This document shows positions 25,884-62,714 of a DNA stretch of 64,000 nucleotides, piece by piece. A program made the position numbers and the translations under genes. Each line of letters starts with the position of its first letter. The first letter of the stretch is position 1. The notes under the pieces were generated by a model. It was not told the origin of the DNA and searched no databases. It saw only the letters and a program-made list of their open reading frames with translations. The stretch is from Lingula anatina (lineage: Eukaryota; Animalia; Brachiopoda): contig CM120648.1 of assembly GCA_051362555.1 (NCBI GenBank), positions 18,906,587 to 18,970,586 of the forward strand. Direction: 5' to 3'.

Positions 25884-26817
25884 ATGGAAGCCATGTTAGG
25901 GCAGTCTAGACGAGGTGTAAATCCAAGATCAGGACAGGTGACAGTACAGACACAACCTCCATTAGCTGAACAGGAAACAAATACAACATCAGCTACACAT
26001 CCTAATGTTTTCTTAGAGAAAGCAGAATGTGTGCGTTCCTTCAGTGCTAAACTGGAAGATGATAGAGAAATAACTGGCATAACTGGGTTAGCCATAGATA
26101 AGGAACACATGTTTGTTGTGGATGATGAAAACAACAGAACAAAAGTATTCACACATGAAGGACAATTTAAGTTTGACATTAAAGTAAACAAACCATATGA
26201 TGTGGCTGTGTCACAGACTGGTCACCTGTATATAACATCACTGGGTGACAGATGTGTCCAAGTGTACTCCACCAGAGGTCAGCAGGTGACAACCATGGGT
26301 CAGGGTATACTGGAGGAACCACAGGGTATTACACTGAACAGACAAGGTCATGTGATGGTTTGTGACAGTAGAAAGAAGTCCATCTTCACATTTCATGCAG
26401 ACAGTGGACAGCTCCTGAACACTATTCCACTCAGTATGTGTGAATTACCAGAGTACATCACAGTGAACACTGTGAATGATAACATTGTGATATCAGACAT
26501 GTGGAGACACTGTGTACATGTGCTGTCACCTACTGGTGATCATCTGTACAAGTATGACTGCAGCAGAGAAGGCAGTGAACTGAGTTTACCATATGGAGTG
26601 TGCACAGACAGCTATGGTCACATCTTCATTGCTGACAGTTGGAACCACAGGATAGTGGCACTGAGTCCACAGGGACAGTTTATCAGATACATTGTCACTA
26701 AGGATGATGGGTTGAAGTATCCCAGGGCAGTAGTCATCAACCCTGCTACTGGTCAACTGGTGGTGGGAGACACAGGGGGCAATGTTAAGACATTCACGTA
26801 CATTGAACTGAAACAAG
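25884..26817 (+). CDS. Exon 1 (putative): TRIM2/3-like NHL-repeat beta-propeller lacking RING/B-box
   Basis: About six NHL repeats (PYDVAVSQTGHLYIT, PQGITLNRQGHVMVCD, PYGVCTDSYGHIFIADSWNHRI). Ends in a consensus phase-1 donor CAAG|GTGAGT; if unspliced, the ORF stops at 26825 (313 aa). Confidence 0.9.
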
Positions 26818-37400: not shown

Positions 37401-37529
37401 ACAGCTTGTCAAGCACAAAACTGGTGGCTGTGTCCCTTATTTTGTGTAAGTGGGGGTCTATACGAATGCGCTTGCTCCAGCTGGTGGTACAATATTTGGA
37501 GGCGGTATCGCCTCTCTGATCCTCTAGTT
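34461..37529 (+). mobile_element. Helentron-associated (HINE/DINE-1-like) element with central satellite
   Basis: 5' TTATTGTACCACCAGC with a nearby inverted copy, (CCGCCGGCT)n micro-repeats, central tandem array, 3' subTIR GCTGGTGGTACAA, hairpin GAGGCGGTATCGCCTC and CTAGTT end. Inserted in T-rich DNA without a clear TSD. Confidence 0.8.
35465..37325 (+). repeat. 146-bp tandem repeat, about 13 units
   Basis: CCAAAACTGGCAGAGATAGGTCC recurs at 35475, 35621, 35767, 35913, 36059 and onward to about 37226 (146-bp period). Confidence 0.95.
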
Positions 37530-43362: not shown

Positions 43363-44332
43363 TTATTAGTACCACCAGCCTGTAAGCTGTTGGTACTCCT
43401 AATTTTATTCCCGACCCGTCTCATACAGCTCCACTAGCTCCGCATTCTGGAGCTGGATACAAGTCACCATTCTCCTCCTAGACCCCAAGGACCCATGTCC
43501 CCATCTCTTGGATTTAGGTCACATATTATCTCAATTTGAACCCTTTTTTTTGGCTCAGTTGATGCATTATCCTGGGCATGACGTTCGTTGAAACGCACCC
43601 TTGTCAAAATTTTTGAAAATTCGATGCCAAATATCTCTCAAACCAAAGGAATTATCGGAAAAATTACTATAGAATTTTGACCGAAAGTCATATTTGTAGA
43701 TTCCAGATATGCCCTTGGATTTGACAGTTGACCTTTATCTCAAGGTCAAACAGGCCAAAATCTCCAAAAAATGGGGATTTAAAAAAATATGTTTGTGCCA
43801 ATTTTTAGAAACTACACCGACCTAAGTGGGGGGATTACAATTTGGGACTTCTTCGGGAGTTTGGGGTCAATAGGTGCATTTTCACAGGAGAGGCAGCCGT
43901 TAGATGCCAAAGCTGAAAACTCTCTATTAAACCAGAACCCTAAATACAAGAGACCTCTTGTTTTTTGCATTTCGTAGAGCTTGTCAAGCTCAATTGATAC
44001 GTACTGGGGTTGGAATCCATTTTTTTGTTTGTTTTTGATATGTAGGTTAGGAGTTGTGCTATATAAAAAAGTACATTTCAATATTCAGTAGTGAAGCAAA
44101 ATGTGAAATACTCAAAAACTGGCAGAGATACACCCATGGTTACTATTGACCTTGAATAAGAAGTCACATACTGGCAGCCAAACTGTGACCTTGAAATTGA
44201 CCTTTGACCTACTTTTTCATCTTAAACTAAGTCTTGCAAATTTTTTGCCTCTTTTATCTGCAAAAATGGCAGAGATACACTTATAGTTACTATTGACCTT
44301 GAATAGGAAGTCATATACTGGCAATCTTACTC
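43363..44332 (+). mobile_element. Diverged, 3'-truncated HINE copy with about 1.5 satellite units
   Basis: Starts TTATTAGTACCACCAGC, is homologous to 34461-35220, and has satellite units at about 44113 and 44260. Confidence 0.65.
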
Positions 44333-44790
44333 TACGCTGCTTTGTAATCTGGAACATAGTCGATCTTACACGTCAGACTTTGTGTGCAAATCGACTTTGT
44401 GATTTATGAAAAATGTCTGTATACTTCACTTTGTTCTTCAGCAGTGATTCAGTATCCAGATTACACACCCTTTTTATCTATCTGTCTATTTTACTCGAAG
44501 TTTGTTTTACCCTGATATAAATAACGCACCATAGTATTTTTGGGAATTTCTCAATTCAATTCAAAAATTTAATTAAGCTGCGATTTATCGACTTTTGTCA
44601 TCGTGAAAATGTGAGATTTTACATAACACACTGTTACTCTCAAGCACATATGCAGGCATCCACCTCTCTAGATTTTCTCTCGCTTCCTCTCTGCTATCAC
44701 TTCACAATAAATATAACGTCTGCAAACATCATCGTTCACCTTATCCATGAGTCCTTTTGTCAATCTGAAGCATAACATTTGTATTACCAG

Positions 44791-45021
44791 GTGAGTTTAA
44801 TGAACGGCTTCGCCGATTGTGTGAAAGTGGTAAGATTCCAGTATACCGACAGCGAGTAGCTATTGTTGGACCTTACGGTGTGGGGAAGACTTATCTCGCC
44901 AAGCGCCTCATCCATGAGGAATATATCAAAGAAGAAGATGCAAATACAACTGGCGTGAATATATACCGCCATAGGTGTGTTGTCCATAAAGCTGGCCGAT
45001 CCTGTTGGATCAGAGGAAAAG
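44791..45021 (+). CDS. Roc GTPase exon: P-loop and switch I
   Basis: GKIPVYRQRVAIVGPYGVGKTYLAKRL...NTTGVNI. Phase 1-1, CCAG acceptor, G|GTAAGC donor. An in-frame TGA at 44766-44768 and no ATG before the P-loop mean an upstream exon is required. Confidence 0.85.
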
Positions 45022-45470
45022 GTAAGCAGAATATAGGAAAACATTTGACACATATGGAATATGTTTATAAAGAATACAAAGAACAGAAGATAAGACATTT
45101 TCAATTTTACCACATAATTCACAATAAGGAATTATACATACGTGTACGTGTGGGTGTCGAAATGTGTCCTTCCCTATCTTAGTATGGTAGACGAGGGGCT
45201 GAGTGAAATAGTACCTAAATAAGTGGTGCCTTTGTATTGTTATCAATCAATTAACATACATGACACTTTACAATCTACTCCTACAGCCCATTGATTATTT
45301 TTTAACTGGGTACAAACACGATAATTTCATTCTCTGTAAAAACACCATGCTTTATTTTACTAAATATTGAATTGAATTTTTCAACGGTGTAGCCTGATAC
45401 GTACACTCAGAAAGGGTACATTTAGATACAACGCTTGATCTACCTGTATGATCCTTCCAACTATTCTCAG

Positions 45471-45626
45471 ATGATCCAAAAGACCAGTTTGCACAAAACA
45501 TGGCAATTGGAGTACAGAATTCAGATACGTTTTGTGAGCCGGACTTAACAGTATTGGACCAAACGCCACTAGAGGAATCCCCACCAGATTCAGAAGAGAA
45601 TATTAATAACATGCTGACAAATAGAG
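45471..45626 (+). CDS. Roc insertion exon (acidic)
   Basis: TTCTCAG acceptor; DDPKDQFAQNMAIG...EESPPDSEENINNMLTNR; phase 1-1. Confidence 0.65.
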
Positions 45627-45840
45627 GTATTGTACATGATTGTCTCGAATAGTTCATCTTGGTGCAATTTAAACAGATATTTGTAGTTATTCTTCTTTTT
45701 TGCCAAGAGATTCCACCTTCTATGTGTTTTTCTTTGGCCATTCCACATATATGTGCCTTGAAAACATTTTTGTTTACTTCAAGGTTGATTCTTTTTCTGT
45801 TAGAATGTTGTTTGATATTATTCTTCTCTTTATTCTACAG

Positions 45841-45891
45841 CTGCTTCCCCTGATGACAGTGAATCACCTGCCTCTCCTGACAAAGCAGCAG
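45841..45891 (+). CDS. Micro-exon (51 nt) of the Roc insertion
   Basis: Long pyrimidine tract plus TACAG; AASPDDSESPASPDKAA; CAG|GTAAGT donor; phase 1-1. Confidence 0.7.
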
Positions 45892-47350
45892 GTAAGTAGT
45901 TCACATGTAGTAAAACAAAATTCTCGTGTGTTGCTCAGAATGTTCGAGAGTTTTTCTTAGCTTGTTGATAAGGTATGTGAGTTTCTATCTTCTTATTTTC
46001 ATCATACTGGGACTTTGAACTCACATGGGCATGAAGCCTGGTGGTAATCAAATTTTCTTAATGTCCATGTTTTTAATAGAATATAATTAAAATTTTGTGG
46101 TATTTATACAGTTGACCATTATGTTATATTGCATCAAAAACCTACTTTGTGCACTATCACCATAACGTTATAAAAAGAAAACTGTTACCTATTTTATATT
46201 TACAAAAAATGATTCTTAGGATTGACAAATAGCTTAAATTAGAAAAACCAGCTCTTTTGAATTATCCTTTTTATCGAATTATGCATTTTTTGTGAAATTT
46301 TTATTTATCTCATTCTGGTGTGAGCTTGAACTCTCATGGGCCTGAAGCCTTATGCTTTTACTTACATCGTTATATACTGTTGTGCATAATTAAATTTTGG
46401 GGTTGACTGTGCAGTTAAGCATTGTATTACATTAGAACTGACAGCCTCCTATTTTGTGCATTATTATTTTCTGCTTTTTTAAAATTGTGACTTAGATATT
46501 TCATGGGCCTGAATACCGTTGCTAGTCACATTTGGGTGACAAGCCTCTAATCTTCCATTGGGTAACTACTAGCTAAATTCAGAGCTATAAGGTCACTTGC
46601 CTAAATTAAGTTTCAAGTGGCAATAAAATGAGATCATATAAAACACACATGTTGAGATTCCCTGTAAACTCCCATAGGTTAAGTTTTCTGCCAGATAACA
46701 GTGTCCATAATAGGGAAGCAGTGATAATTATGCAGATAAATGTTGTTTAATTTTGCAAATTAGTTTTCAAAAAATTATTTTGTATAATGCCAACATTAAT
46801 GCTAGTTTTAAAAGCAGCTTTACTGAAATGTTTTGTTTTTAATTTTTTTCAAACACTGAGGGTTTCAACTCAATTTTTAACTCCCCTCCACCTGAAGCTC
46901 TGCACATTTTCTGTTTTCCCACAAAAGCAGTTGTATTGGTATTTATGTATTTCAGCATTATGTAACATTATATTATTCTATGCACTGCTTTCATATGTCA
47001 AATATTGTGATTTTCATTACTAGTATGTGAATTTGAACTTTCGTGGTCCTGAAACTGTAATCTTATCATAGGGGCAGATTGGGATCGTCCTCAAGGTTTT
47101 CAGGAAGACGGTCAGATTTTAAAGTTAACATTGACGGGTATCTAATTTTTTTGTTGGAAGACCATCTAAAATGGAGGGTGGATTAACAAAGATATTTTAA
47201 AATACTGTCAGAAAATACATTTGGATCCGCTCCTGTTATTGACCATGTTACCTGTTGTGCATGACTTAAATTCAGTGTCGATTGACCGTGCTATTACAAG
47301 TATTATTTATTATTGCATCAAAATGAGAAAATAACCTATTTTTTGCATCT

Positions 47351-47389
<39 letters not shown>

Positions 47390-47396
47390 TTTTGTC

Positions 47397-48015
47397 TGTA
47401 GACTTGTCCTTCAAGAAATACATGCCTTCAAGAAATCGACGAAAACTGGAAGTGCATGTTTTTTGCACTGTTTTTCCTGTCATGCCCATCGTAAACACTG
47501 TGTTGTCAAGTAAAAGGAAGCATCTGATACAAAGTATCAAACGCGGCATTGACGTGCTTGCTTGCGATGTGTTCAGTACACTTTGTTTACACTGACAAGT
47601 CGAGGTCAGAAATGCACAATGTTTTTCTATGTAATTACGCAGTTTCAATTTTGATTAGTGAATTTTCTTTTATCTGCATGGTCATTTTCCGAACATTTGT
47701 ATAAGCCACGAAATATTTCTCATCGGAAAATCACCCAGCAGCTTTCCAAGTACAAGCGAGTGACGTCATGACGCACTTCCGGTTTTCGTCAAGATCTTGA
47801 AGGGATTAGCGTTATGGTTTGCTGCACATTTAAAGCGTTCTGTCTCTAAATGTACTTGACTGCTTGGATTGAAATTTACAGAACTTATTCTTCACATGAT
47901 ATCACACATATGTGCTTAATTTGAGAGCTTTAGCTGTTATATATTTTCTACAGTGCCCATTCAAAATTGAAAAAGAGCTATTTTCCGTCAATTTTTCTTG
48001 AAGGGCAGGTCTACA
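47397..48015. mobile_element. MITE-like element
   Basis: Imperfect TIR TGTAGACTTGTCCTTCAAGAAA...TTTCTTGAAGGGCAGGTCTACA, flanked by TTTGTC/TTTGAC. Confidence 0.5.
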
Positions 48016-48395
48016 TTTGACAGATTTGCTGTCTTGTTTTATCTGGGTACAAACACGACAATTTAATTTTCTGTAAAATAAGTCTTCTTTATATGACTGA
48101 GGATTATTTTTCTTTTTGCCAAGGGATTCCACCTTCTATGTGTTTTTTGTTGGCCATTATACCTTATGTGCCTTGAAGACTGGACACTTGATACCAATTA
48201 TACTTGATCTTATTAGATGCATTTTCGATGTAATTTATTTATTTTTATACAATATTTATAGACCAATATCCCAAAGTTATATGTTAAAATTTTGTAAAGA
48301 AATTCCTTTATCTTAGCCACATTTTTGTTTACTTTAAGATTGAGTCATTTTCTGCTAGAATGGTGTTTGATATTCTTCTTCTCTTTATTCTACAG

Positions 48396-48428
48396 CCGCT
48401 CCACCTGCCTCTCCTGACAGAGCAGCAG
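48396..48428 (+). CDS. Duplicated micro-exon (33 nt) of the Roc insertion
   Basis: Paralog of 45841-45891 with an 18-nt in-frame deletion; AAPPASPDRAA; splice sites intact; phase 1-1. Confidence 0.65.
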
Positions 48429-49260
48429 GTAAGTAGTGCACATGTAGTAAAACAAGATTCCGTCTTTTGCTCATAATCTGCAAGAGTTGTTCTTAGCTTG
48501 TCGATTAAGTATGTGAGTTCCTGCATTCTTATTTTCATCAAACTGTATTAATAATGTTATATTAAAATTGACTATACCTTACAATTTTAATTGATTTTAA
48601 TGAATGTTAAAACATTCAGTATTTATCACCCAGTTATGTTTTGAGCTTACTCACTTGTATTCAACAGAGAGGATACATTTTTAAGAAAAAAATGTTTTTT
48701 TTTTGGAAATTGCCGATAAACCTTCAGAAACAGATGAAAGCTTCTAATTTATTTGATAACTGTTTCACAAAGTTAATTGACACTAAATACATTCAAATTT
48801 TGTCAATGATTACAATACTTTTTTATGCTAAAAAGTTTTATTTTAACCACACTGTTTATTGTACAGTCCTTTTCAAAGGTGAAAGTGGATCTCATACCTC
48901 TGGGGAAGAAAACATGAGTAGTATAAGAATGTTGACGATATGTCGATGTATGAACAGTCCCTGACAAATGAAATAAATTAGATTGAAAGCATGTCTATAA
49001 AGATTAAGGTCTAGTCTCTCACAACCCCCCCCCCCCCTTGAAGAAGGCACATCAGCTGAAAACTCAATTGGGCGCTTGATACCAATTATACTTATTACAT
49101 GCATTTTCAATCTAATTTATTTATTTTTATACAATATTTATACAATATACTGCGGGATTAATACGATGATTTGGATAAATATGCACGCATTGCAATACAT
49201 AACAATATGCATTATGCTAAAATCATTTAGTTTGGACATAGCTTATTGTATTCATTGCAG

Positions 49261-49506
49261 TGGCAGAAAGGAACCATCTAGATGATATTGACAAGGAGCT
49301 ATTGGAAAAAATTGAGAAAATTGCCCGAGGGGAAGATGTGGAGCCAGAGAAACAGGTCACAATTTGGGATTTTGCAGGACAGGATGTCTACTACACCACG
49401 CACCAAACATTCCTCTCAGAGCGGATCATCTACTTGTTGGTATTCCGACTTGACCAGGACCTCGATGATAAAATCCGTGTATACAGGGGAGAGAAGACGC
49501 TGAAAG
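49261..49506 (+). CDS. Roc exon: G3/switch II
   Basis: VTIWDFAGQDVYYTTHQTFLSERIIYLLVFRL is the canonical Roc motif. TTGCAG acceptor; phase 1-1. Confidence 0.92.
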
Positions 49507-49772
49507 GTATTGTTGAGCTTTATATCTTTACATGTATAAGCTACTCAGGGCCCTCATGTAAATAATGGCCTGTCAACTGTGTGTAATTTCTTTATTAAAA
49601 GGTCCACATTTTTAAATCTCTCTATTGCTCTTAATATATATATATATATATAACATTGAGATTTTAGTAGCGTTAATTTTAAATGGTTCCGATGAGTGTT
49701 TTGGATTTTAATATTCTAGTGATTTTAAGGATTTTAGTTATATTTACCATTGTAAGCCGCCCAATAAGAAAC

Positions 49773-49803
<31 letters not shown>

Positions 49804-49894
49804 TATTGGCGCTATTTTTTAGCAATGCTGAGGAGAAAACACTGATTAATATTCATCTTTGCATTAACATCAAGGCTTTGTATGTATTTTTCAG

Positions 49895-50019
49895 AGTTTA
49901 TTATGTTTTGGTTAAACTCAATCCATATGCACACTATTGGAAAATTGAGGGAAGAAGACAAAAATGCCATGCCATACGTCTTGATTATTGGAACTCATAA
50001 GGACATGTTATGCCCACAG
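49895..50019 (+). CDS. Roc exon: G4
   Basis: FWLNSIH...PYVLIIGTHKD; phase 1-0. Confidence 0.9.
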
Positions 50020-50063
50020 GTGAAAACGCTTTTCTTATCACAATTATTCAATTACTACCATAC

Positions 50064-51785
50064 TTATTGTACCACCAGCGTAGGCGCTGGCGGTACACAT
50101 GGTTTTAGTCCCGACCCGTATGTTCCGCCGGTTCCGTCGGCTCCTGCGGCTCCGCCGCCAAGTCACCGTTACCGCTTCTCCTCCTAGACGGTAAGGGCCT
50201 CCATACCCATCTCTTCGATTTAGGTCACCTATAATCTCAACATGTCCACGTAAAATTTGGGCTTTGTCGGTGTTGGGGTCTAGGTGTGGCACTTATTGCA
50301 ATGCACTCTTGTCCAAAAATGGCAAAATTAAATGCATATTATCTCCTCTACGGAAGGAATTATGGGAAAAATTTCTACAGACAGCTTTCCAAAAGTCATA
50401 TGTGTAGATTTCAAATATGCCCTTGGATTTGACCTTTAGAGTTTCGAGTTACGCTGTATCCAAAAGTACATATTGGTGGTGAAAGCAAAATGTGCAGTAC
50501 GGTAATGGATAATAAATTTTGAACTCCGGAAAAATAAAACATAAGGCTTGGCAAAGCAGACAACTTGTGGTCAAAAATGATATTCTTTCATCAAATTTGA
50601 ACATCTGGAACTTCAGAGCACCTCCCATTTCAAGAATTTTTACCAAAATGATGTTTTCTTTATTTAAATTAATCTTTTCTGTAGGAAATTTATGGCACAT
50701 TATGGTAACTCAAAAATTATAACATTTAGTCCCTTATATCTCCAAAACTGGCAGAGATAGGTCCATAGTTTCTATTGAAGTTGAATAGGAAGTCATATAC
50801 TGGCAATCTACATGTGACCTTAAAATTGACCTTTGACCTACTTTTCACCATGAACTAAACTTTGCAAATTTTAATTCCCTTTTATCTCCAAAACTGGCAG
50901 AGATAGGTCCCTAGTTTCTATTGAACTTGAATAGGAAGTCATATACTGGCAATCTACATGTGACCTTAAAATTGACCTTTGACCTACTTTTCATCATGAA
51001 CTGAACTTTGCAAATTTTGCTTCCCTTTTATCTCCAAAACTGGCAGAGATAGGTCCCTAGTTTCTATTGAACTTGAATAGGAAGTCATATACTGGCAATC
51101 TACATGTGACCTTAAAATTGACCTTTGACCTACTTTTCATCATGAACTGAACTTTGCAAATTTTGCTTCCCTTTTATCTCCAAAACTGGCAGAGATAGGT
51201 CCATAGTCTCTATTGAAGTTGAATAGGAAGGCATATACTGGCAATTTAAGAGTGACCTTAAAATTGACCTTTGACATACTTTTCACCATGAACTGAATTT
51301 TGCATATTTTGCTTCCCCTTTATCTCCAAAACTGGCAGAGATAGGTCCATAGTTACTATTGAACGTGAAAGGAAGTCATATACTGGCAATCTAAGTGTGA
51401 CCTTTAAATTGACCTTTGACCTACTTATTATCAAGAACTGAACTCTGCTAATTTCTTTCTCTTTTAACTCCAAATCTGGCAGAGATAGGCGAATAGTTAC
51501 TATTGAAGTTGAATAGGAAGTCATATACTGGCAATTTACTGTGACCTTGGAATTGACCTTTGACCTACCTTACGATGAACTTAACTTTGATTGTACCATT
51601 TTTAGTTATATATATATTTTTTGCATAATTTGAAAATTCTTGTTGATTGCATTTTTACAGCTTGTTAAGCACAAGACTGGTGGCTGTGTTCCTTATTTTG
51701 TGTATGTGGGGGTCTATACGAATGCGCTTGCTCCAGCTGGTGGTACAATATTCAGAGGCGATATCGCCTCTCTGATCCTCTAATT
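50064..51785 (+). mobile_element. HINE copy with about 6 units of the 146-bp satellite, intronic
   Basis: Same ends as 34461-37529, with a perfect hairpin AGAGGCGATATCGCCTCT near the 3' end. Internal deletion at about 50436; array about 50730-51570. Confidence 0.8.
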
Positions 51786-52115
51786 CTATGTATAATTTGT
51801 ATCCCTTCAACCATATCACGATTCCTGACGAGTGACTTAATTATTTAGAAACTTTTCACTATGTGACTATTTGTGGATGGCATGATTTAATGTTGGGGGA
51901 AAAGGGTGTCCCTTGCCCACTGACTCCATCCTAATTTTATAGGTTCATTGCAGCACACCCATTTTTCAACTTGAACGAAGTGGACTATATCATATACACA
52001 TATATACATGTACATACACACACCCTGGTAGATGTTTTCTTTCGCTCTGACACTTAAGCATTATTATATAGTAGTGAAAAACTACAAAAGAATCTTAACA
52101 TCTTTTCATTCATAG

Positions 52116-53286
52116 GGCGAGGTTGAAAAGATTTTTGATAAACTCAAGAAGTGTCTCGATGACAAGCAGGTACTCAAGGACCACGTCTATCGATATTTTG
52201 CCATAAGCAACTTGGCCGAAGACGATGAGGAGTTTGCTGAAATAAAAAGAGCGATCGAAGATTTGTGCGGTTATAGCAGCGACAGTGAGGCTACCGTTCA
52301 ACATCTTCCAGTGAGTTGGATTAAATTGGAAATGAATTTGGCAAAGAAGAGTGAAGAAACACCCATCATAAGTATTGAAAAATTGATGGAAATGGCGCAA
52401 AGGGTAGGACTCCCTGATGGAGAATTACAAGAAAAATTCATTCCTTACCATCACCGTCAAGGCGACATCCTACACTTTAAAATTGATGGACTGGAAAGTG
52501 TCGTCATAATAGATCCACTTTGGTTAGCAGTTGTGTTTTCTGCCATCATGACCCCAGCCAGCATTCACTCTGGATGCAGTCGCGGCCATGTCCTGAAAGA
52601 TGAGCTTGAAAGAGGAGTCCTAAAAGAGGAGGTATTTGATGAGTATCTAAAAGAATTCAAGATGGCCGAAAAAAAGACTGAAATCATTCGACTTATGCTG
52701 CATTTCGACTTGATGTTAGAAATATCCCAATCAGTTGAAAACCCTCTGCCTGGACATGGAAAAAGAAGATTCCTCGTACCCAGTATGCTGGTATCAAATA
52801 ACAGTGCGAATGAGACAAATCCGCAGAAATATTTGCTTATCGCATTCCCTCATATTCTGTTTCCTACTGGGTTATTTCATCGTCTGACCATCCGTCTTCT
52901 AAGGAAGTATAAAGCTCAGCAATATAAAAATAACATCCCAGTTGTCGGGTTTGACAGCGCCTCCTTCCGCCTGGCTGATAAACAGTCGGTGCTGCATCTC
53001 GCCATTGAAAATAAGGCCATGAAGTTGTTTATAACTAACGCCACTGGACTCCCTCCAAGGACTCACGTGTATTCAGAAGCAAGAAAAACAGTTGAAAACG
53101 AGTTGACAGTCCTTCGGGATACATACTGCCCCAGGATGCATTTTGGCTACAGCATCAGGTTAACAAATGACGGACCCAATATTCCAATAAATGCACATGA
53201 CGTCCAAACAGCCGATTCCATATGTGCGTATGTAGAGAACTCTGAAGTGTCGGTAGATTTAAGGCCATATCGCGTTTGGTTTTCCG
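52116..53286 (+). CDS. Roc G5 plus COR domain exon
   Basis: YFAISN (G5), LPVSWIKLE, YHHRQGDILHF, VVIIDPLWL, FLVPSML and PTGLFHRL are COR-A/COR-B motifs; phase 0-1. Confidence 0.92.
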
Positions 53287-53955
53287 GTAAGCAGTTTGAA
53301 ATATCACGTAATGTTGTTGTGAATAGACATTAGGCCCTATGCTATTTTAACATAGAACATGCATTCCGTGTTAATTGGTTCACAGATCTTAACATTTTAA
53401 AAGATCCCTGATTACACAGCATGTAATATCTGAAACCAGATACCATTAGAAAATTTAGGTTTGATTAGTTTTAATTTTCAAAGTAATTTATCTGGAAAAA
53501 AGTATTAAGGATATTTCTGTTTTGTACATATATTTTTGAAAATATTGATTTTTTACACAAACACTAATGACATACAATGTTAGTTATTTCTTATGAATAC
53601 TCAATTGTATATGCAATAGACTAAAAAATGCACAATTAGAAATTAATGGGAAAATTTATATTAATCTACCCTTCTTAAATGAACTAGGTACTTGTTTGTA
53701 ACATTTTTATTAGAAACAAAAGGCAAGATATCGTATTCAGATTTTACTCAAACGTTGTGAATTAGCAACCTGTGATAACAAGTCATTAGAAACATGTCAG
53801 TGAGAGATAAACCCAAAATTAACAATCATTTCGGAATGACACTTGGATTTTGCAAGGAAAAGTACGGCGTATGATAGGACATAAAGTATTTTGATGGGGC
53901 CCTAGAGGCCAAGTACCAATATATAATATATATTAGGCCAATCTTACCATTTTAG

Positions 53956-54005
53956 CAGCCCCAGAGAATCAAGACCGTCGTGCAGCCAAGTGTCCTGAAA
54001 ACGAG
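53956..54005 (+). CDS. COR-caspase linker exon with GC donor
   Basis: TTTTAGCAG (NAGNAG) acceptor; AAPENQDRRAAKCPENE; GAG|GCAAGT donor. It converts phase 1 to the phase 0 required by the next exon. Confidence 0.7.
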
Positions 54006-54327
54006 GCAAGTTATGAGCTTTTAAATACGTTTGTGTCTTAGTACTGCGCAGCAAACACATAACGTTATTATAACGTTACCATATCATATGTCCAAAAACA
54101 TTTTGGTAACATTATAGTAACGTTCTGTGTTTGCTGACCATTATCCTCACTTGCACAAGTTTTAGTAAGACCATGAAATTAAATGTACTCGTATATACAC
54201 AATCGTAAGAAAAATTGGATACACTTAGGCATAAATGCGCACTTTTCACTCTGTTACACTTGCTATACGACCTCCGATATTTCTAATGATAAATTTCACA
54301 TAAAGACAGTGTATGTGTGCGTTTCAG

Positions 54328-54498
54328 TACAAGAACGATTCCGAACCGAGAGGTCGTGCACTCATTATCAACAACAAGACATTTTCCGTGGACTGGCTTC
54401 CAGAACGTGATGGTACCGAGGTAGATGTTGTTGCCTTGAGGAAACTATTCCATTACCTCCATTATGAGACAGACGTTATCAGTAACCTGACCGCAAAT
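54328..54498 (+). CDS. Caspase p20 exon 1
   Basis: YKNDSEPRGRALIINNKTF...ERDGTEVDVVALRKLF..L.Y...SNLTA; phase 0-0. Confidence 0.93.
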
Positions 54499-54819
54499 GT
54501 GAGTTCATTAATAAGATCATGGTGTGTTTGTAATAAAACGAACATCGTAAAAGCCAAATGGCTTTTAGGTTTCAAAGACTAACACACTTTTTGGTGATAT
54601 CTAAATATATTTATCAGTGACACAAAGATGATACAATTGATACTTGAACCTTTTGGTTCAAAACAGGTGTTGTCAAACAAACTTTTCGGTCACATTTTAT
54701 TATGTTTATCTATTTCACTGCAATGTATTTTTCTACCAAAATGAAGCTTTTCACTCGTTTCTGTTCATTGCATGTATTTGTATTTATATGAGAGACATAT
54801 GGTACACTGTATAGTTATA

Positions 54820-55429
54820 CAACATTGGTCAAAAAGGTTGTCCCACCCCTATTTCCATGTACTTCTATTTACAGGTGATCACCTTACAGCTATAAATTGT
54901 TAGAAATAGATCACTGAATTGGAGTGTGCAATGCAAAGGAGAACCAACCCCATAAAAACCTGGGCCAAATCCCCCAAATCTTGTTTAAGAAGAATCGGAC
55001 AATATTCCACAAAGCAGAATTGTAACCCGTGTTGAAGGCTTGTCGCGCCGTCTACAGGAGATAATTGCAGTACGTGGTAGACGCACACGCTGTTAGGCAC
55101 ATGACCTTTAACGAGCATACACTAATGCTAATTGTGTGTGAATTTGGTGACATTTGATGCCGTCTTTTCAATTTTATAGACATTTCTTTACATCTGTAGA
55201 AGTCACAGAGAAACAGTCGATTTGAGGGGGTTCCTCTTATAAATTTTACTAAATGGTATAAAATATGTATATTTTCATCACTATTTTGTATTTTTAAAAC
55301 CATTAATCACGTTAGACACGGTATCCGTAATAAAAAGCACTATTTCTAACAATTTATAGCTGTAAGGTGATCATCTGTAAATAAAAGTACATGGAAATAG
55401 GGGTGGGACAACCTTTTTGACCAATGTTG
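54820..55429 (+). mobile_element. Tc1-like deletion derivative in a caspase intron
   Basis: About 90-bp TIRs starting CAACATTGGTCAAAAAGG, TA TSD. Internal VEGLSRRLQEIIAVRGRRTRC* resembles the Tc1 transposase C-terminus. Confidence 0.85.
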
Positions 55430-55667
55430 TATACAGACAGACATGGCGCACAATCTACAAATATACCACCATATGTCCGTCCTCGGTGGCTACTGCCTTT
55501 CACATTCTCTGTTAGCGTCAAGTATGAATTGATGCTGCCATTTTGCTTTACGCTGTCGTTGATAACCCAATTCCGTATGTACCACGTCTCTGCAGTCATT
55601 GCATGCTATTTCGTTTGAAGTACACTATGTTTTTATGTCACTACTTCTTTTATTTTAATATGTAAAG

Positions 55668-55887
55668 GAAATGAAGGAAGAAATAGAACAAGAAAGTCAA
55701 AGAGACGATCACAAGATCTACGATTCGTTCATCTTGTTTCTACTGAGCCATGGTACCGAGGGTGCTGTTTATGGAACGGATGGCTATCCTTTACCCTTCA
55801 AATATATCAAAGCCATTTTGAATAACAGGAAATGTCTTGGCCTGTCGGGCAAACCGAAAATGATATTTATTCAGGCTTGCCAGGGAA
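55668..55887 (+). CDS. Caspase p20 exon 2 with catalytic dyad
   Basis: FILFLLSHG...VYGTDG...LSGKPKMIFIQACQG; phase 0-1; GTAAGT donor. Confidence 0.96.
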
Positions 55888-56149
55888 GTAAGTTATGGAA
55901 TGTATTACACAAGCTTGAATACCTGTGATGAAAATAACATGCAAAATTATTAAACAAATGTATTGAGATATTAAACTGTATTAACAGTTTGTCTCCTTTA
56001 AATTATATTCAGCCACACGAAACGAATGACGCTTAGTATTATGTAATTGTTTAATTAGTTAATACTGATATCAATTCTAACTTATATGTAAACATGTAAT
56101 CCACATAAGAGTGTATGGGGTATTTCATTTTTTTTCCATATTCACCCAG

Positions 56150-56320
56150 AGAGAAGGGACAGTGGGACACTCCTGGACGGACAAACAGTTCAACAACCAC
56201 AGCAAGCACCACCTGCAGCAAACCTTGGCGATGAGGTACCCGATGCGCCACACGAGATTCCAAAGCCATCCAATGATCCGACGATGTCCGATTTTCTCGA
56301 AGTCCATGTGACTTCACCAG
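56150..56320 (+). CDS. Caspase intersubunit linker and start of p10
   Basis: KRRDSGTLLDG...DEVPDAPHE...PTMSDFLEVHVTSP; phase 1-1. Confidence 0.85.
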
Positions 56321-57401
56321 GTACTTTAACCGTGTTTCTTTGTATGCCATTTTACTTAGGCCTTACAAATGTGTTTTTCATCAGAAAAAAAAATCAAAAT
56401 GATAAGGTGCACGTGGTGATGCTGGGATTATGGCATTTTGCCTCAGGTAGAAGATGGTGTGCATTTTGTGGTCTTTCGACATATTGTGGAGAACTGTATT
56501 GTACGTGTATACTTTAAAATGCGCACTACATTACTGCACCAGTAAATACTGAAAATGGTGCATGTATTTTTATACAGTATCAAATAAAATATATGTGCCA
56601 AATTTAATTAAAATTTACGTACATTTTTGCCATAATGCTTTTAAAAATGCGTTCAAGATCACTACGAAAAACGAAAGTGTGTCGAGACGTTACCTAATTG
56701 TATTTGGGAAGCTGTCAGACGATTTCTTTCGAAAAAAGACTTTGTAGCTTATGCAAATGTTGAGAAAAAAACATGCCGATTATGGAAAATTCAATTATCA
56801 AAATTTAAACTACGTAATTTGACAGATTTTAATTTAATTTAATTTAAAAATCGCTATCGTGTATTTTTGACATTGAATTCTCAGTGTGCACAAAGTGTAG
56901 GCATCGAAGGCATTCATGAATGTCGACACGTTTGATTCTTTGAATCAGACGTGTGGCAGGCATATCAGCAAAACAAAATGCATCGCCAAGGACCCGAATG
57001 CCATGGCAAAATGTTTTAAGTTTACTTTGTTATTTTGATACAAATAAGCTTCCGGTTGACATAGATTTGACTGGTCTCCAACTTTTCATGCTGCACTGTG
57101 CCTGACCGAAAAAAAAAAAACCCTTAAAATGAGTAGTGATTCAGTGTTCCAGTGATGCCTGCGATGGCTAGAAACGTGACCCGTATTATTGGCCTTTTGG
57201 AGATCATTTCAGGTCGGTTCACTGTAACACTATCGGCAAATATACTTTACTAATAGTTCCTCGATCTATGCGATTTATGAAATTTGCTTTTCCGCACTCT
57301 CAGTGAGACTAAGTACTGTTATATTAACAAAATAAAAATAAACAGTACCGTTGCATCTACGAGTAAATAATACATTAAGGCTTCAGTATTTTCTGTTTCA
57401 G

Positions 57402-57511
57402 ATTACGTATCTTGGCGACACACGGGAAAGGGAACATGGTTTGTTCAATCCATTGTCGATACATTTTATCGTGAAGCACACAAATATGACGTTTTACAAA
57501 TGTTGGTGAAT
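57402..57511 (+). CDS. Caspase p10 exon
   Basis: DYVSWRHTGKGTWFVQSIVDTF...DVLQMLVN; phase 1-0; not in the ORF track. Confidence 0.93.
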
Positions 57512-57747
57512 GTAAGTACTGAAATAACATGAACTATATTATTTTACATTGAAAGTGTGTTAAATTCATTAGAACACCAATCAAATATAAAACATAGCTA
57601 CCAGAAGAAGTGACATGTCGTAAGAGGTGACTTATGTAAATACAGTCCAACATGCACAGACTTTTTAAGAACCAGCGAAATGCTTTTCTGTATATTTTGA
57701 CAGTTTAATCAGAACTGTTCACTTCATGTAATATTTTATTTCACCAG

Positions 57748-57850
57748 GTCAATCACGCGATCTCTCAAAAGCAAACAATAGAGGGCAACAAACAGGCACC
57801 AGAGATAGTTACCAGCTTACGAAAGAAAGTTTTCTTCAACATAACTCCAG
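57748..57850 (+). CDS. Caspase p10 final exon, open-ended
   Basis: VNHAISQK...KQAPEIVTSLRKKVFFNITP, then CAG|GTAAGC phase-1 donor instead of a stop codon. Confidence 0.9.
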
Positions 57851-58019
57851 GTAAGCAAAAAGAGTCGCATCTTCCCGAGGTGTATTCGGCCGAATAATAA
57901 AGACTCGAGATCAAAAGTAAGCAAAAACAACGAACCTGGAACGTGTTAAGGTACAAACAATGCTGCCAGTCCTGCTGAAGATCTCATCCTTTTATCAAAT
58001 GTCTCAAATCTGCCACCCA

Positions 58020-60070
58020 GTTGCAGACCCTACCTACAAAATTGTTTCCCAACTTCAATAAATTATTCCCAACTAAAGCTGGAACTTCAAGGTTATGATC
58101 TTCATAAGGTTATTTTTCTCATCAATGTTATTTCTATGTGTTTCTACCTAAATTGCACCACAACTCCTAGCATTCACGCACCTCACATTCATTTATCAGT
58201 ACTTACTCCTCCTGAAGTGATTTGGGACTACATTGAATCAGGTTATCCTTTGGGCGGATTACTGGCACAATTTAGTCTCCTTCTTACAGATTTCAAATAT
58301 TCAATGTTACATGTTGTCCCTAAATCTGATCTTCACAAAACTCGTGTAATTTACGATCTTTTTTTTTATCCCAACCTGGTCTCGGTTGATTCTAACATTC
58401 CAAGAGAGTTCTCTGTGGCACAGTACGACTTCATTGATGCTGTTATCACGCAGGTCCAACATTTTGTTCGTGGTGCTCTTTTAGGTATATCTTATATTCA
58501 AGATGTTTTCCACATTTTACCGATTATCAACTGCGTCCATCCCTTAAAGGCCCAGTGGGTCACCTGTGACCTACACATTTGACACGTCCCCACCCACACC
58601 ACACAAAATGAATCCACTTCATTTTGCCATTTCCTATTCCCTTTGACGTAGTTTATCTTTGTTGACCAATTAGAAGCTAGATCATTATCCTTCACTTCAC
58701 TCAAATATGTCTGCTTCCATAAGAAGGAGTTAATGCTATTGTCTAGAGGGTTTTTATGTGTCTGTATTGTCATCTCAAGGTAAATAATAATTTCAATATT
58801 CTGGCTTTTCATTCTAAATACAATAGTCTTAAACCACACAGAAATGTTTTATACAGTTGTTAGCTAAGCTTCCAGGTTTAATTTTATTTTTTATGTTGTT
58901 ATTGTAATAAAAAGAGGTTTGTGATATCTTGAAACTTAGTCCAGTGTGTCACCGGTGGAACATAACCAAAAACTAGGTCAGTTTTGCCCAAAACATTTTT
59001 TTTCAACATTTATTGATAAATATGCTTATTACAACCCTATTACCTAGGTATTAAACTTTTCATGCAAGAAAAACATGTCTTGGGCCTTTAAGGGTTTTTC
59101 CTGGATAGATCTGTTTTATTATGAGAAATGTTTGCCAATAGGTGCAAGTTGTTCATGCCAGATTTTTTAATCTATGAGTAAAGCTATGCAATGGATTATG
59201 TTGGAGAGATTTCATTATTCGGCCATGTCCCGTATACTAGATGATATCTGTTTCATTGGACCTCAAAATTCCAAGAAGTGTCAGGTTGATTTTTTTTTGT
59301 GTTATGCACATGGATAAACGTTTCCATTAACGCAGTAAAAACCTTTACTCTGACCACTTGTTTAATGTAAACAACCTTTACTCTGACCACTTTTCTTTAT
59401 TTTATCTCATCGAAATAGATTCAATACAAATGAAACCTTGGATAGGCTTTTAGGGTTTAATCTGAAATAAAATTTCAGGCATCGGTCAAACGTGTCTAAT
59501 TTGGTTCAGTTTTGTTGTGGGATATGGTTGATTGGGTGAGTAATGACCCACCCACTTATTGTCCATGTGGTTCAAGTATGGTGATTTTGATGATCAAGGT
59601 AACTGCTTACTCCCTTGTTTCATAAAGTTATCTGCTATTCGAGGTTCTCTGTTCGAACCAGTAATCTCATTGTGCAACCTCAAATTACTCCTAATGTGCC
59701 CCCTAGTCATGCGATTCCCAGATTATAACTTACTTTGATGTGTTTAGGATCTTATTATTTTTTTACTATAAAAAATGATAATTTTCAGTCATATGCACTT
59801 TACCTCATTTGCCTTTGAGCAAAAACAGAGCTGCGTTGTGCTAATGATCATTTGGCTACATAAAACAGCAATTTAGATAATTGTGTTTATGTAGGGAATG
59901 TCTACATCAGTGAGATTTAAGTCATCCAGCTCTTTAGCTGCTTGATATTTACCCACATTGTTACGTAGTGCAGTATAAGCAGCTACACTGGAAGATTACT
60001 TGCTTCATTATTTCATTTTTATTTGGACACATTCCACCTTCCCGCATCACCCGCCTTAGTCCTTTTGTTT
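58020..60070 (+). mobile_element. Decayed DIRS/Ngaro-type retrotransposon (RT remnant) in the caspase-ZU5 intron
   Basis: VVPKSD..KTRVIYDL..PNLVSVDSNIPREFSVAQYDFIDAVI...RGALLGISYIQDVFHILPI (58136-58582) and ILDDICFIGPQNSKKC (about 59230-59280) resemble DIRS/Ngaro RT. Boundaries approximate. Confidence 0.7.
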
Positions 60071-61137: not shown

Positions 61138-61823
61138 GAGACAGAGATGACGGTATGTCTCAAGAAGAAAGAATTTTAAAATTACCTGCACCACCCCAGA
61201 CCAGGCACTCTGCCTCACAAGGCAGGGAGGAGATCAGAACAGATGATCTCAAAGATACATTCCTGAGGAAATTCTCCATCACTCCAGAAGGTGGACATGT
61301 TCACCTGAAGGAAGTTGGAGTATTCCTATTAGTGCCTCCAGGAGCTCTGGCTGAAACTACACAAATGTTCATTGGTATTAGTTGGAGAGAAGAAGACATG
61401 CCACCGCTGCCACCGTGTCAGACTAGAGCAAGTCCAGTTGTTGTCTGCGGACCACATGGCCTGACATTCAGAAAACCAGTGTACCTGTCATTTTATCACT
61501 GCATATCAGGCACACGTCAAAGAAAGATGGGAAAGATCTGTCCTGAAAATGTAACTCAGAATTCAAGAATGGACAATCCATTTTACGTATGGCAGTCAGA
61601 AACTCACTTAAATGCCCCTTGTAAGTGGAAAGTATTGAGCAGTGATTCTGCTGTTTTGACAAACAACAAATGTGTCTTAATTGTGAACCAGTTCTGCAAA
61701 CACAGTTTGTCATGTGACAGTAAGCGTCTTTCTGCCTTGGTGTTTGGGTCATTTCAGCCTGGATATGCCCCGTTGCTGCAACTGATGGTGTGCTGTGTCA
61801 ATGACACCCCATATGAAGTTGAG
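61138..61823 (+). CDS. ZU5 domain exon plus start of UPA-like region
   Basis: ITPEGGHVHLKEVGVFLLVPPGAL...SPVVVCGPHGLTFRKPVYLSFYHC matches the ZU5 pattern; phase 1-0; GAG|GTGAGG donor. Confidence 0.9.
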
Positions 61824-62158
61824 GTGAGGCTTATTCTTCAAGCAGGTCTCTTTCTTTGTAAATGTTTGGACAATTCCTCACATACTGACATAATTTCAAT
61901 GTAATAGCTGATTGTTAAAACTTTGTAAATTGTAATTAGTTACTTCGTTAAGTATTCTTAATTTATGCCAATTCTTTTAAATTGAAATATGCATTCTTTT
62001 TCAATTGAGCATTTTCGGGACAGCCCAACATGTCATATGTTTTCATATCTTTTGTGCTTATTTGTGGAGATTGGTTTTCGCTCCTTATCTTTTGATACCC
62101 CTGAAATGCTTGTATGTTGCTGCTGAATGGTAAATATTTTTTGTTGTAAATGTTGTAG

Positions 62159-62335
62159 AATGTGACAACTAAAACTAAGGAATCCCATGAAATGAAGATG
62201 TTAGCTTTGGAAAAGAAGTTTGAAATCTTGACGTGTAATCACAGTATAAGTGAAGGAAACGAGTCCTATGATGTCATCCTTTGGTTAGACGGGTTCGGGA
62301 CAAAGTGGAACATGCATGAAGATTGCCCTAAAAAG
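62159..62335 (+). CDS. UPA-like exon
   Basis: Open phase 0-0 exon NVTTKTKESHEMKMLALEKKFEIL...WNMHEDCPKK with AG/GT boundaries. Confidence 0.65.
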
Positions 62336-62525
62336 GTTTGATTTTTTTTTTTTTTTCAATATTGTGTAACAAAGATATGTATACTATAATAAGAAGGCTA
62401 TTTTAGGCATAAAGAGCATGTACTGTGATGATCATTGCTGATTGGTGTGAAAATATCAGTTTCTTAGATAATGATAGAGAGAGTGATCGATAGAATAAGT
62501 TTAAAAATACCGTTTTGCATTTTAG

Positions 62526-62714
62526 GTTATTAAGTATGTGAAATTGTTGAAAAACTACCCAGAATATATCACATATGCCCTGAGCCCTAAAATGGTAGAC
62601 AGAATTGATGTGTTTGTCTGCAAGATACACATCAAGCAGGAAATAGCCGAGGCTCAGGACATGAAAATTAAAGACCTGACATCCACTGAGTTTAACATCC
62701 ACTGGAAGTTACCG
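62526..62714 (+). CDS. UPA-like exon
   Basis: VIKYVKLLKNYPEYITYAL...FVCKIHIKQ...HWKLP; TTTTAG acceptor and CCG|GTAAGT donor; phase 0-0, no stop codon. Confidence 0.7.

Follow-up and report, generated by a model that had tools for sequence, protein, structure and literature searches.

To our knowledge, every animal initiator caspase studied to date depends on a CARD or DED platform for its activation. A 64,000-nucleotide stretch of the genome of the brachiopod Lingula anatina (contig CM120648.1; hereafter the window) raises the question of what a caspase fused directly after a COR domain is, and what would activate it. The initial annotation had placed this caspase in the slot held by the kinase in LRRK proteins and had proposed that COR dimerization replaces the death-fold prodomain; it had missed the Roc and NHL exons upstream of COR.

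Exons, reading frame and transcription

The window gene likely encodes a single chain of 1272 amino acids, an NHL propeller followed by Roc, COR and caspase, with its start at 25884; all exons described here lie on the + strand. The putative first coding exon (25884..26817) carries the Met, a disordered leader and a six-bladed NHL propeller (Pfam NHL, E 2e-21) and ends in a phase-1 donor. P0008 and P0038 begin at the same Met, and the proposed joining of this exon to Roc follows the join in the RefSeq model P0008.

The first Roc exon (44791..45021), with the P-loop GxxxxGKT, reaches the Pfam Roc cut-off. It is followed by a Roc insert exon (45471..45626; 94% to P0008) and by a small phase-1 insert exon rich in Pro, Ser and Ala (45841..45891). 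A second small phase-1 insert exon (48396..48428), with splice sites and an open frame, is a degenerate copy of the first and can probably be skipped, the depth of RNA run X4 being lower there (about 16x). Roc continues with the exon carrying switch II, WDFAGQ (49261..49506; Pfam Roc, E 2e-8) and with that carrying the G4 motif THKD (49895..50019). The end of Roc and the whole of COR, that is COR-A and the C-terminal subdomain, share one exon (52116..53286; Pfam COR-A, E 1.8e-21), which terminates in a phase-1 GT donor.

When COR was spliced straight to the caspase, the frame shifted and then met a stop. The 1-kb intron between them contains one open phase-1-to-0 exon that passed the filter, with three candidate acceptors and an end at 54005, where its GC donor has the top score of the 78 GT/GC sites in the intron. 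This mini exon (53956..54005; 50 bases) is required for the frame and encodes 17 residues, the spacing between COR and caspase that the initial annotation had given. The caspase itself is encoded by five exons, three of which matched Pfam Peptidase_C14: two for p20 (54328..54498, E 3e-9; 55668..55887, E 5e-19, with the catalytic His in SHG and Cys in QACQG), one for the intersubunit linker and the start of p10 (56150..56320), one for p10 with the specificity motif SWR (57402..57511, E 8e-7), and a last exon (57748..57897) that either ends at a stop overlapping AATAAA (57895-57897) or is left through an internal phase-1 donor at 57850. The spliced frame is open from Roc to the end of the caspase, and also from NHL to the stop. 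All module borders (NHL/Roc, COR/mini exon, caspase end) are in phase 1.

Two Lingula RefSeq models, P0006 and P0016, are 96% identical to the window model and contain the same join, with the mini exon identical at 17/17 residues in both; the three copies, about 96% alike, retain frame, linker exon and catalytic dyad. Frame, donor and near-copies together make the COR-caspase join well supported, and the proposed fusion stands. Neither CARD nor DED was found by Pfam in any of the 15/15 window frames scanned, in line with the initial annotation, which had noted no such prodomain.

In run X4, from the same species, all modelled exons inside 39500-59400 were covered on the + strand, at 16-74x by exon (about 54x on the first Roc exon), depths to which close paralogues may add since reads were accepted from 90% likeness. 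Two joints within Roc had 27 and 28 read starts in X4; of the joints within Roc, 45624>45839 (GT..AG) was present in runs X1 and X4 and 49504>49893 was crossed by 41 reads. The Roc-COR joint 50017>52114 was crossed by 39 X4 reads with 31 starts, and 55891>56157, between the second and third caspase exons, by 14 X4 reads, its net length being that of the 262-base intron. No COR-mini-caspase joint was among the 15 listed of the 161 joints.

Only 2/469 tblastn matches fell outside the modelled exons, both in an intron read-through tail of P0008, and no further coding fragments were found beyond those exons. The window yielded no HEPN exon, and no counterpart of the short tail exon of P0006 was found; a frame at 41835-42053 was rejected as HEPN, its five-residue likeness to the HEPN tail of P0005 not being significant. 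Downstream, two exons (61138-61823 and 62526-62714) encode ZU5/UPA (Pfam ZU5, E 3e-19; Atlas ZU5/UPA, 0.96) and may belong to a separate gene.

The caspase, the GTPase and the propeller

The catalytic domain has the hallmarks of a metazoan caspase (C14A): the p20/p10 fold, the His-Cys dyad, QACxG and the Arg motifs of the Asp pocket. The near-copies scored 193 bits with Pfam C14, there was a fold match with a TM of 0.86 by target, and Foldseek returned caspases only. The motifs predict Asp-specific proteolysis and self-cleavage, the latter at the candidate sites TLLD-G and EVPD-A.

QACQG had been taken as a mark of caspase-8/10, but the CARD caspases of Lingula have it too. In a quick tree without bootstrap, the window caspase grouped with caspase-Y, in a clade (SH-aLRT 95) with Casp.Y3 XP_013405490.1 and the PARP caspase. 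A clade with the DED caspases was rejected (AU p 0.029, P0115 having been entered into the group after the tree was seen), and a caspase-8/10 type, which would also have a tandem DED, was discarded. TLLD-G is present in the linker as described, and so is DEVPD-A; the likeness of the latter to the caspase-9 site PEPD-A is weak, since PEPD does not align there. Its VPD-A portion is inherited from caspase-Y1, where K replaces E. In P0006, R follows the first candidate Asp.

Roc is followed directly by COR, as in Roco proteins; this rests on Pfam Roc and COR-A, on the Roc-COR joint in the reads and on profile matches in the PDB, the family profile matching CtRoco and LRRK2 (LRRK2 E 3e-27). The motifs G1, G3 and G4 are intact (GPYGVGKT, DFAGQ, THKD), and COR is folded in the AF2 model of P0016. 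LRRK1/2, DAPK1 and MFHAS1, which represent Roco groups 1-3 as outlined in PMC6337361, share with the window protein the Roc-COR tandem with intact motifs; lacking LRR, kinase and death domain, the window protein fits none of the three groups. A derivative of LRRK (group 2) was rejected, with NHL in front and a caspase behind and neither LRR nor kinase. The LRRK kinase slot thus holds as a position after COR and not beyond that, the more so as the paralogues carry HEPN, Death or OTU.

The best PDB match of the propeller was the NHL domain of TRIM3/TRIM2, and AF2 modelled it with 24 strands (pLDDT 80). Neither RING nor B-box motifs were found on the + strand between positions 1-27000, and a TRIM-NHL fragment was discarded, there being no RING, B-box or coiled coil ahead of NHL. 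At the protein level, 25 of the 36 masked positions of the predicted top (binding) face differed in pairwise comparison versus 13-14/209 elsewhere, and the other two comparisons gave 23/36 versus 12/209 and 29/36 versus 13/209; the mask was drawn after the first alignment had been seen, so that only the comparisons with P0038 are out of sample. Over the same gene the Roc exons are nearly fixed (76/77 residues identical to P0008 in the first, and 123/124). The predicted binding face is hypervariable, as in immune receptors.

Module exchange and relatives

The Lingula caspase-Y1 (XP_013403374.2) shares linker exon and caspase cassette with the window gene: 233/275 residues are identical from the mini exon through the five caspase exons (about 85%, by eye), and 13/17 in the linker exon, also by eye. 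In this protein the cassette follows a CARD, the prodomain expected for caspase-Y, whereas the window gene has NHL-Roc-COR in front of it. COR therefore stands where CARD stands, and its proposed occupation of the prodomain position is supported at the level of gene structure. These RefSeq and caspase-Y1 models are gene predictions; that of caspase-Y1 also takes in part of a second cassette, so chimeric models can arise in these arrays.

Other modules are exchanged as well. The same NHL exon (87%) occurs in P0038 on a Roc-COR only 27% alike. COR is 76% identical in P0002, where the caspase is only 40% identical, and 81% identical in P0001, which carries HEPN instead of a caspase. Among the Lingula Roc-COR paralogues, the C-terminal effector is a caspase of either of two types, HEPN or none.

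Roc/COR followed by a caspase was found in 10/165 collected proteins, from Lingula, Owenia, Branchiostoma and Exaiptasia and in two further records; such proteins thus occur in Owenia, amphioxus and sea anemone, and the architecture in at least four animal phyla. Word-based searches with the caspase had failed to recover the fusions outside Lingula, which another search found. A single clade for their caspases was rejected (AU p 2.4e-6), so the join arose repeatedly. In 4/14 double-domain proteins the caspase precedes Roc-COR, which argues against one fixed geometry.

One such protein was already known. Owenia fusiformis CAH1787638.1 (Horkan et al. 2024, PMC11463336) has, like the window protein, Roc, COR and a caspase with QACQG that belongs to the caspase-Y group; unlike it, it has no NHL by eye and a much longer, acidic tether. 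The passages of that paper on this protein speak of a 'ROC pro-domain' without naming COR, regard it as an isolated case confined to one species and suggest DAPK binding; the Lingula near-copy XP_013381226.2 is listed there with an empty pro-domain cell, and Lingula is described as lacking APAF-1 and caspase-2. A second Owenia protein, CAH1786849.1, belongs to the same caspase clade as the window caspase.

Bacterial precedents are also known. Kaur et al. 2021 (PMC8195603) describe repeat-Roc-COR-effector proteins in which caspase is one of 24 effectors, and the gasdermin-cutting protease of Runella is a Roc-COR-CHAT protein (Johnson et al., bioRxiv 2021.06.07.447441). As in these LRR-AP-GTPase(Roc)-COR-effector systems, the window family combines a fast-evolving N-terminal repeat sensor (at the protein level, the NHL-Roc joint coming from a RefSeq model), Roc-COR and an effector that varies among paralogues; caspase-like proteases are among the effectors, and paralogues are many per genome. 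In contrast to them, the window gene is animal and spliced, senses through NHL and carries a true p20/p10 metazoan caspase derived from a host CARD caspase, in which no sign of bacterial transfer was found. The molluscan and other invertebrate Roc-COR-Death/CARD/TIR/HEPN expansions (PMC9334734; Atlas clusters) belong to the same broad Roco clade and share the variable slot after COR; those described there carry adaptors or other enzymes, whereas the window gene has the protease itself fused.

Activation of the caspase

Since a close relative has a CARD in the corresponding position, the Roc-COR switch likely takes over activation of the protease. We give an even chance to an NHL-Roc-COR-caspase-Y receptor in which Roc-COR replaces CARD in pairing and activating the caspase, the trigger probably being a foreign ligand bound by the propeller; the receptor probably acts in immunity. 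The cassette would have moved by recombination within a phase-1 intron. Ligand on NHL would alter the nucleotide state of Roc, and Roc-COR dimers would pair two caspase domains over a flexible tether of 25 residues (the mini exon has a pLDDT under 50 in the AF2 model of P0016), although tether length, at 25, 36 and 73 residues, is not conserved. The dimer would then cleave itself at TLLD-G and EVPD-A and might cut effector caspases or a gasdermin-like target, leading to death of the infected cell or to an immune signal.

Dimerisation is the activating step of initiator caspases (PMC1088972, PMC5123071), and by analogy COR dimerisation is a plausible trigger; a homodimer prediction for COR (P0016 residues 1-320 in two copies, alignment not used), with a score of 0.00, speaks neither for nor against it. 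CtRoco is described as dimeric when nucleotide-free or GDP-bound and as monomeric with GTP (PMC5714945), so that switching on need not mean dimerising, and something would have to restrain a dimer at rest. By analogy with CtRoco the pairing state would most likely be GDP-bound or empty, after hydrolysis.

Roc-COR could also be a brake or timer that separates or occludes the caspases, activation coming when a multivalent ligand clusters NHL, or when the caspase is cleaved and released. Cells are rich in GTP, and a default monomer, the form that GTP imposes on CtRoco, would fit such a brake, as would the variable, flexible linkers and the presence of caspases on either side of Roc-COR. Replacement of CARD by the cassette at the same exon border points instead to an activating role, with which a resting GTP monomer is also compatible, and we consider a brake rather unlikely.

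A longer receptor would add to the CARD-replacement explanation: in at least one isoform the donor at 57850, which is strong, would be joined to the ZU5-UPA exons, and a PIDD/UNC5-like tail would follow the caspase. The phases are compatible and the frame stays open, and P0006 and caspase-Y1 continue differently past this donor position. X4 depth over the last caspase exon, about 35x if spliced at 57850 and about 25x if read through to ~57920 (neighbours 27-40x), does not discriminate between the two. P0016, however, reads through to the stop overlapping AATAAA, 0/10 Roc/COR-then-caspase proteins extend far beyond the caspase, a Met lies 6 codons inside the ZU5 exon, and neither a homologue nor a read among those examined joins a caspase to ZU5/UPA exons; such an isoform is unlikely.

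It is quite improbable that the join is a shuffling by-product of an expanding tandem family, one that is young, under weak selection or regulated in the manner of free caspase-Y. Broken cassettes do occur (D replaces the catalytic Cys in P0017, and the second cassette of caspase-Y1 is partial), and expression was high in just 1/4 RNA runs (COR exon 36x versus under 1x). Against this, three copies keep frame, linker exon and dyad, the NHL changes gather on one face when Roc hardly varies at all, and the architecture recurs across phyla. Least of all do we expect two genes side by side, with a Roc-COR gene that ends at a stop at 53333, its final exon running on past the donor, next to an independent caspase gene: the COR frame can reach its own stop 15 codons beyond the donor, the linker exon depends on a rare GC donor and its joints are absent from those listed, but no Met or prodomain exon lies ahead of the caspase, that donor is the strongest site of the intron, two RefSeq models share the join, and X4 depth is similar, on the same strand, over COR and caspase exons.

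Returning to a CARD-replacing Roc-COR, a wider reading can be offered tentatively, on the doubtful side of even: animals may repeatedly have built one-chain death receptors in which the caspase is activated by the Roco GTPase cycle rather than by death-fold polymers of the apoptosome or inflammasome kind. Lingula, reportedly without APAF-1, would assemble them combinatorially from phase-1 cassettes, with an NHL or HEPN front, Roc-COR, a caspase or HEPN tail and a hypervariable face. If true, such proteins would form a hitherto overlooked class of animal immune receptors gated by GTP. The natural exchange of CARD for COR on a nearly identical caspase would provide a matched pair for testing activation by the GTPase cycle only, and a simple protease readout, in an animal protein, for the Roco monomer-dimer cycle, which is disputed and central to work on LRRK2. 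It also connects bacterial defence through Roc-COR proteases with animal immunity, by convergence. 'Prodomain-less' or 'caspase-8-like' caspases in fragmented invertebrate assemblies can, moreover, be pieces of such receptors.

Gene model and its two joins

On the + strand of the window, which is about 36% GC and rich in introns, 14 coding exons were modelled from the sequence and from homologues, with a frame open over 1272 residues: an NHL exon (25884-26817), six Roc exons (44791-45021, 45471-45626, 45841-45891, 48396-48428, 49261-49506 and 49895-50019), a COR exon (52116-53286), a linker exon (53956-54005) and five caspase exons (54328-54498, 55668-55887, 56150-56320, 57402-57511 and 57748-57897). 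A single intron of the model is GC-AG and the rest are GT-AG; the NHL/Roc, COR/linker and caspase-end borders are in phase 1 throughout. Within Roc, a duplicated intron-plus-mini-exon block (45700-45920 and 48100-48460) gives two small phase-1 exons, and the number of such inserts varies among paralogues.

With the COR exon ending in phase 1 and the caspase opening in phase 0, splicing one straight to the other runs into a stop within 30 codons. The intervening intron was scanned for open phase-1-to-0 exons and one donor was returned, the GC site at 54005, which is the top score among the 78 GT/GC sites of the intron (donor matrix derived from 15 modelled donors of the window). Two Lingula RefSeq models on different contigs, XP_013381226.2 (P0006) and XP_013405061.1 (P0016, labelled 'caspase-8-like'), share this join, with all 17 residues of the exon unchanged. 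The fusion of caspase to COR reported in the initial annotation is thus confirmed by a linker exon that keeps the frame and by two models that share the join, and we have little doubt that it is real.

Both RefSeq models start at an internal COR Met. The missing front half is the NHL-Roc protein XP_023930482.1 (P0008), 90.5% identical across 602 columns, which ends at the position of a window intron. The window thus carries in one piece two halves that are listed apart in RefSeq, and the NHL-Roc join is likely real as well.

Four RNA runs were mapped on 39500-59400, with reads accepted from 90% likeness, which may include those of paralogues. In the stranded run X4 every modelled exon within this interval was covered on the + strand at 16-74x; the other three runs gave <1x on the COR exon. 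Among the 15 joints listed of 161 are 45624>45839, 49504>49893 and 50017>52114, all GT..AG; we infer those flanking the linker exon, as they are absent from these 15. The joint of caspase exons 2 and 3, tabulated separately, had 14 reads.

X4 also covers 40164-42819 in the NHL-Roc intron (13-39x, + strand, only in part over repeats). This stretch lacks a long open frame and may be a non-coding transcript or an alternative first exon. The Roc-COR intron holds a dispersed repeat of ~146-base tandem units (50100-51800), strongly transcribed at >1000x in the RNA runs, with kin near 34400-37500 and 43400-44300. Right after the caspase, a 210-codon open frame (57950-58582; no Pfam match, no X4 depth past 58092) resembles, on inspection by eye, the remnant of a decayed retroelement. 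ZU5-UPA exons of a UNC5/PIDD-like gene (61138-62714) head for the window end and are frame-compatible with an internal donor of the caspase.

Identity of the caspase and shuffling of its partners

The best PDB matches of P0016 were a coral caspase (139.6 bits), caspase-9 (136), caspase-3 (130) and caspase-8 (126), a ranking that does not decide the type. A quick tree was built from 47 caspase domains, the window and 46 chosen from 120 caspase-bearing proteins (12 CARD, 12 DED, 9 COR-fused, 8 short and 5 other; partial, tandem and most unlabelled ones were omitted). The window caspase fell in a clade (SH-aLRT 95) with Lingula Casp.Y3, the Lingula PARP caspase, a Lingula RIG-I-like-fused caspase and an Owenia Roc-COR-caspase. 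A clade with the DED caspases was rejected (AU p 0.029, one row having been added after the tree was seen), contrary to the caspase-8/10 type first assigned. The QACQG pentapeptide, on which that assignment had drawn, is not diagnostic, because several Lingula CARD caspases carry it.

A close counterpart is the Lingula CARD caspase Casp.Y1 (XP_013403374.2; Horkan et al. 2024 supplement), in which a CARD is followed by the linker exon and caspase cassette seen in the window, with 233 of 275 residues identical as counted by eye. The second linker motif, DEVPD-A in the window, reads DKVPD-A in Casp.Y1, and its supposed likeness to caspase-9 PEPD-A is weak, since PEPD falls elsewhere in the alignment. 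TLLD-G is conserved, at a spacing after the catalytic Cys that we take to be that of the caspase-3 linker site.

Other caspases of interest were noted. A same-clade caspase precedes a RIG-I-like helicase in Lingula XP_013415815.1 (P0094), replacing the CARDs. The Roc-COR caspases P0002 and P0007 have SACQS instead of QACxG, with His and Cys retained and activity uncertain. Next to a Roc-COR-HEPN gene, P0017/P0018 (LOC106168738 region) show the caspase cassette again, with Asp at the position of the catalytic Cys. Further direct caspase fusions, to a Ras-like GTPase, LRR and BIR, occur in P0158 (Haliotis rubra), P0093 (Glandiceps) and P0052.

The five longer proteins matched with the COR exon are all from Lingula anatina, with near-copies up to 96%. 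Among Lingula paralogues, HEPN_DZIP3 lies behind the related COR in P0001 (COR 81%) and P0003 (66%), HEPN lies in front in P0005, nothing was recognised behind COR in P0004, and P0002 has a COR 76% alike but another caspase (40%). This caspase pairs at 100/99 with that of P0007, whose COR is only 24% like the window COR; the NHL exon recurs at 87% in P0038, on a Roc-COR only 27% alike. Death or OTU is found in bivalve relatives, and in Atlas clusters COR is joined in molluscs to Death, CARD or HEPN, and in cyanobacteria to CHAT (feature scores <0.9, leads only). Since such varied domains occur behind COR, the position is a general effector slot and not, as had been proposed, the kinase slot of LRRK proteins.

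Distribution and repeated origins

With P0002 as query, a full HMMER search yielded 9305 matches, and the top 150 of these were listed. Caspase together with Roc or COR was found in 14 of 165 collected proteins, behind in 10 and in front in 4. Those with the caspase behind come from Lingula (5), Owenia (carrying Bcl-2 at the N-terminus), Branchiostoma floridae, Exaiptasia and two further records; every one is a gene model. For nine of these ten caspases and the window, the starred branches of the tree require at least five label changes, a number made less exact by the long branches P0031 and P0043. A single clade of COR-fused caspases was rejected (AU p 2.4e-6), and the amphioxus Roc-COR-caspase has a CARD caspase of amphioxus as its partner in the tree (support 100).

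Owenia CAH1786849.1 (P0025) is one Bcl-2-Roc-COR-caspase chain. The N-terminal region of Lingula XP_013407220.1 (P0024) is Bcl-2-like by eye, with no Pfam match at E 1e-4. The two may be orthologous, in which case this form would be old.

Variable sensor and predicted activation

The NHL exon model is a six-bladed propeller nearest to TRIM3/TRIM2. A mask of 36 positions, the first-strand start and strand 2-3 loop of each blade, covers what we take to be the ligand face; the structure model bears out their loop positions only. Compared with P0008, whose alignment had already been seen when the mask was drawn, 25/36 masked positions and 14/209 others differ; sliding the mask by 4-10 residues left 0-4 differences and by 1-3 residues 8-14. 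The contrast held for P0038, found later, which differs at 23/36 and 12/209. Roc exons differ from P0008 at 1/77 and 1/124 positions. The variability of NHL is a sign of diversifying selection at the protein level, as distinct from a codon test.

Initiator caspases are held to activate by induced dimerisation (PMC1088972, PMC5123071, in the parts available), and COR dimerisation had been proposed to replace the prodomain. The AF2 model of P0016 (pTM 0.52) shows a folded COR and a folded caspase with a tether of low confidence between them (residues 320-333), which probably leaves the two domains mobile. The NHL sensor would act first, ahead of a Roc-COR switch that would bring about a dimer, in which the caspase would cleave itself; as a whole, we give this sequence an even chance. 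The bacterial model CtRoco is described as monomeric once GTP is bound but dimeric with GDP or no nucleotide (available part of PMC5714945). By analogy the trigger would likely be hydrolysis rather than GTP loading, or else Roc-COR may work as a brake, a reading that the same behaviour of CtRoco would also fit and that we consider unlikely. The observation in the initial annotation stands, and its interpretation is supported in part.

In the portions available, Horkan et al. 2024 (PMC11463336) describe one Owenia caspase of the caspase-Y group with a 'ROC pro-domain', whose printed sequence reads by eye as Roc-COR-caspase, and enter P0006 and CAH1786849.1 without a pro-domain. As far as the accessible text of each source goes, bacterial LRR-Roc-COR proteins have 24 effectors, caspase among them (Kaur et al. 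2021, PMC8195603); the Runella gasdermin protease is labelled Roc-COR-CHAT (Johnson et al.), its LRR and NTPase parts being noted in PMC13475620; Roco-TIR proteins of Aplysia are listed in PMC9334734; and Roco exon shuffling is reported in brown algae (PMC11378527, PMC3341825). The accessible parts of PMC7159879 and bioRxiv 2026.04.20.719644 hold nothing directly on these proteins. In the full-text literature searched, which covers few subscription papers, no description was found of NHL-Roc-COR-caspase, the CARD/COR swap or repeated origins. With one printed animal precedent and the bacterial ones, the architecture does not form a new category. What is added to existing knowledge is the complete receptor, the matched CARD/COR pair, the hypervariable sensor and the repeated origins, and these make the activation mechanism directly testable.
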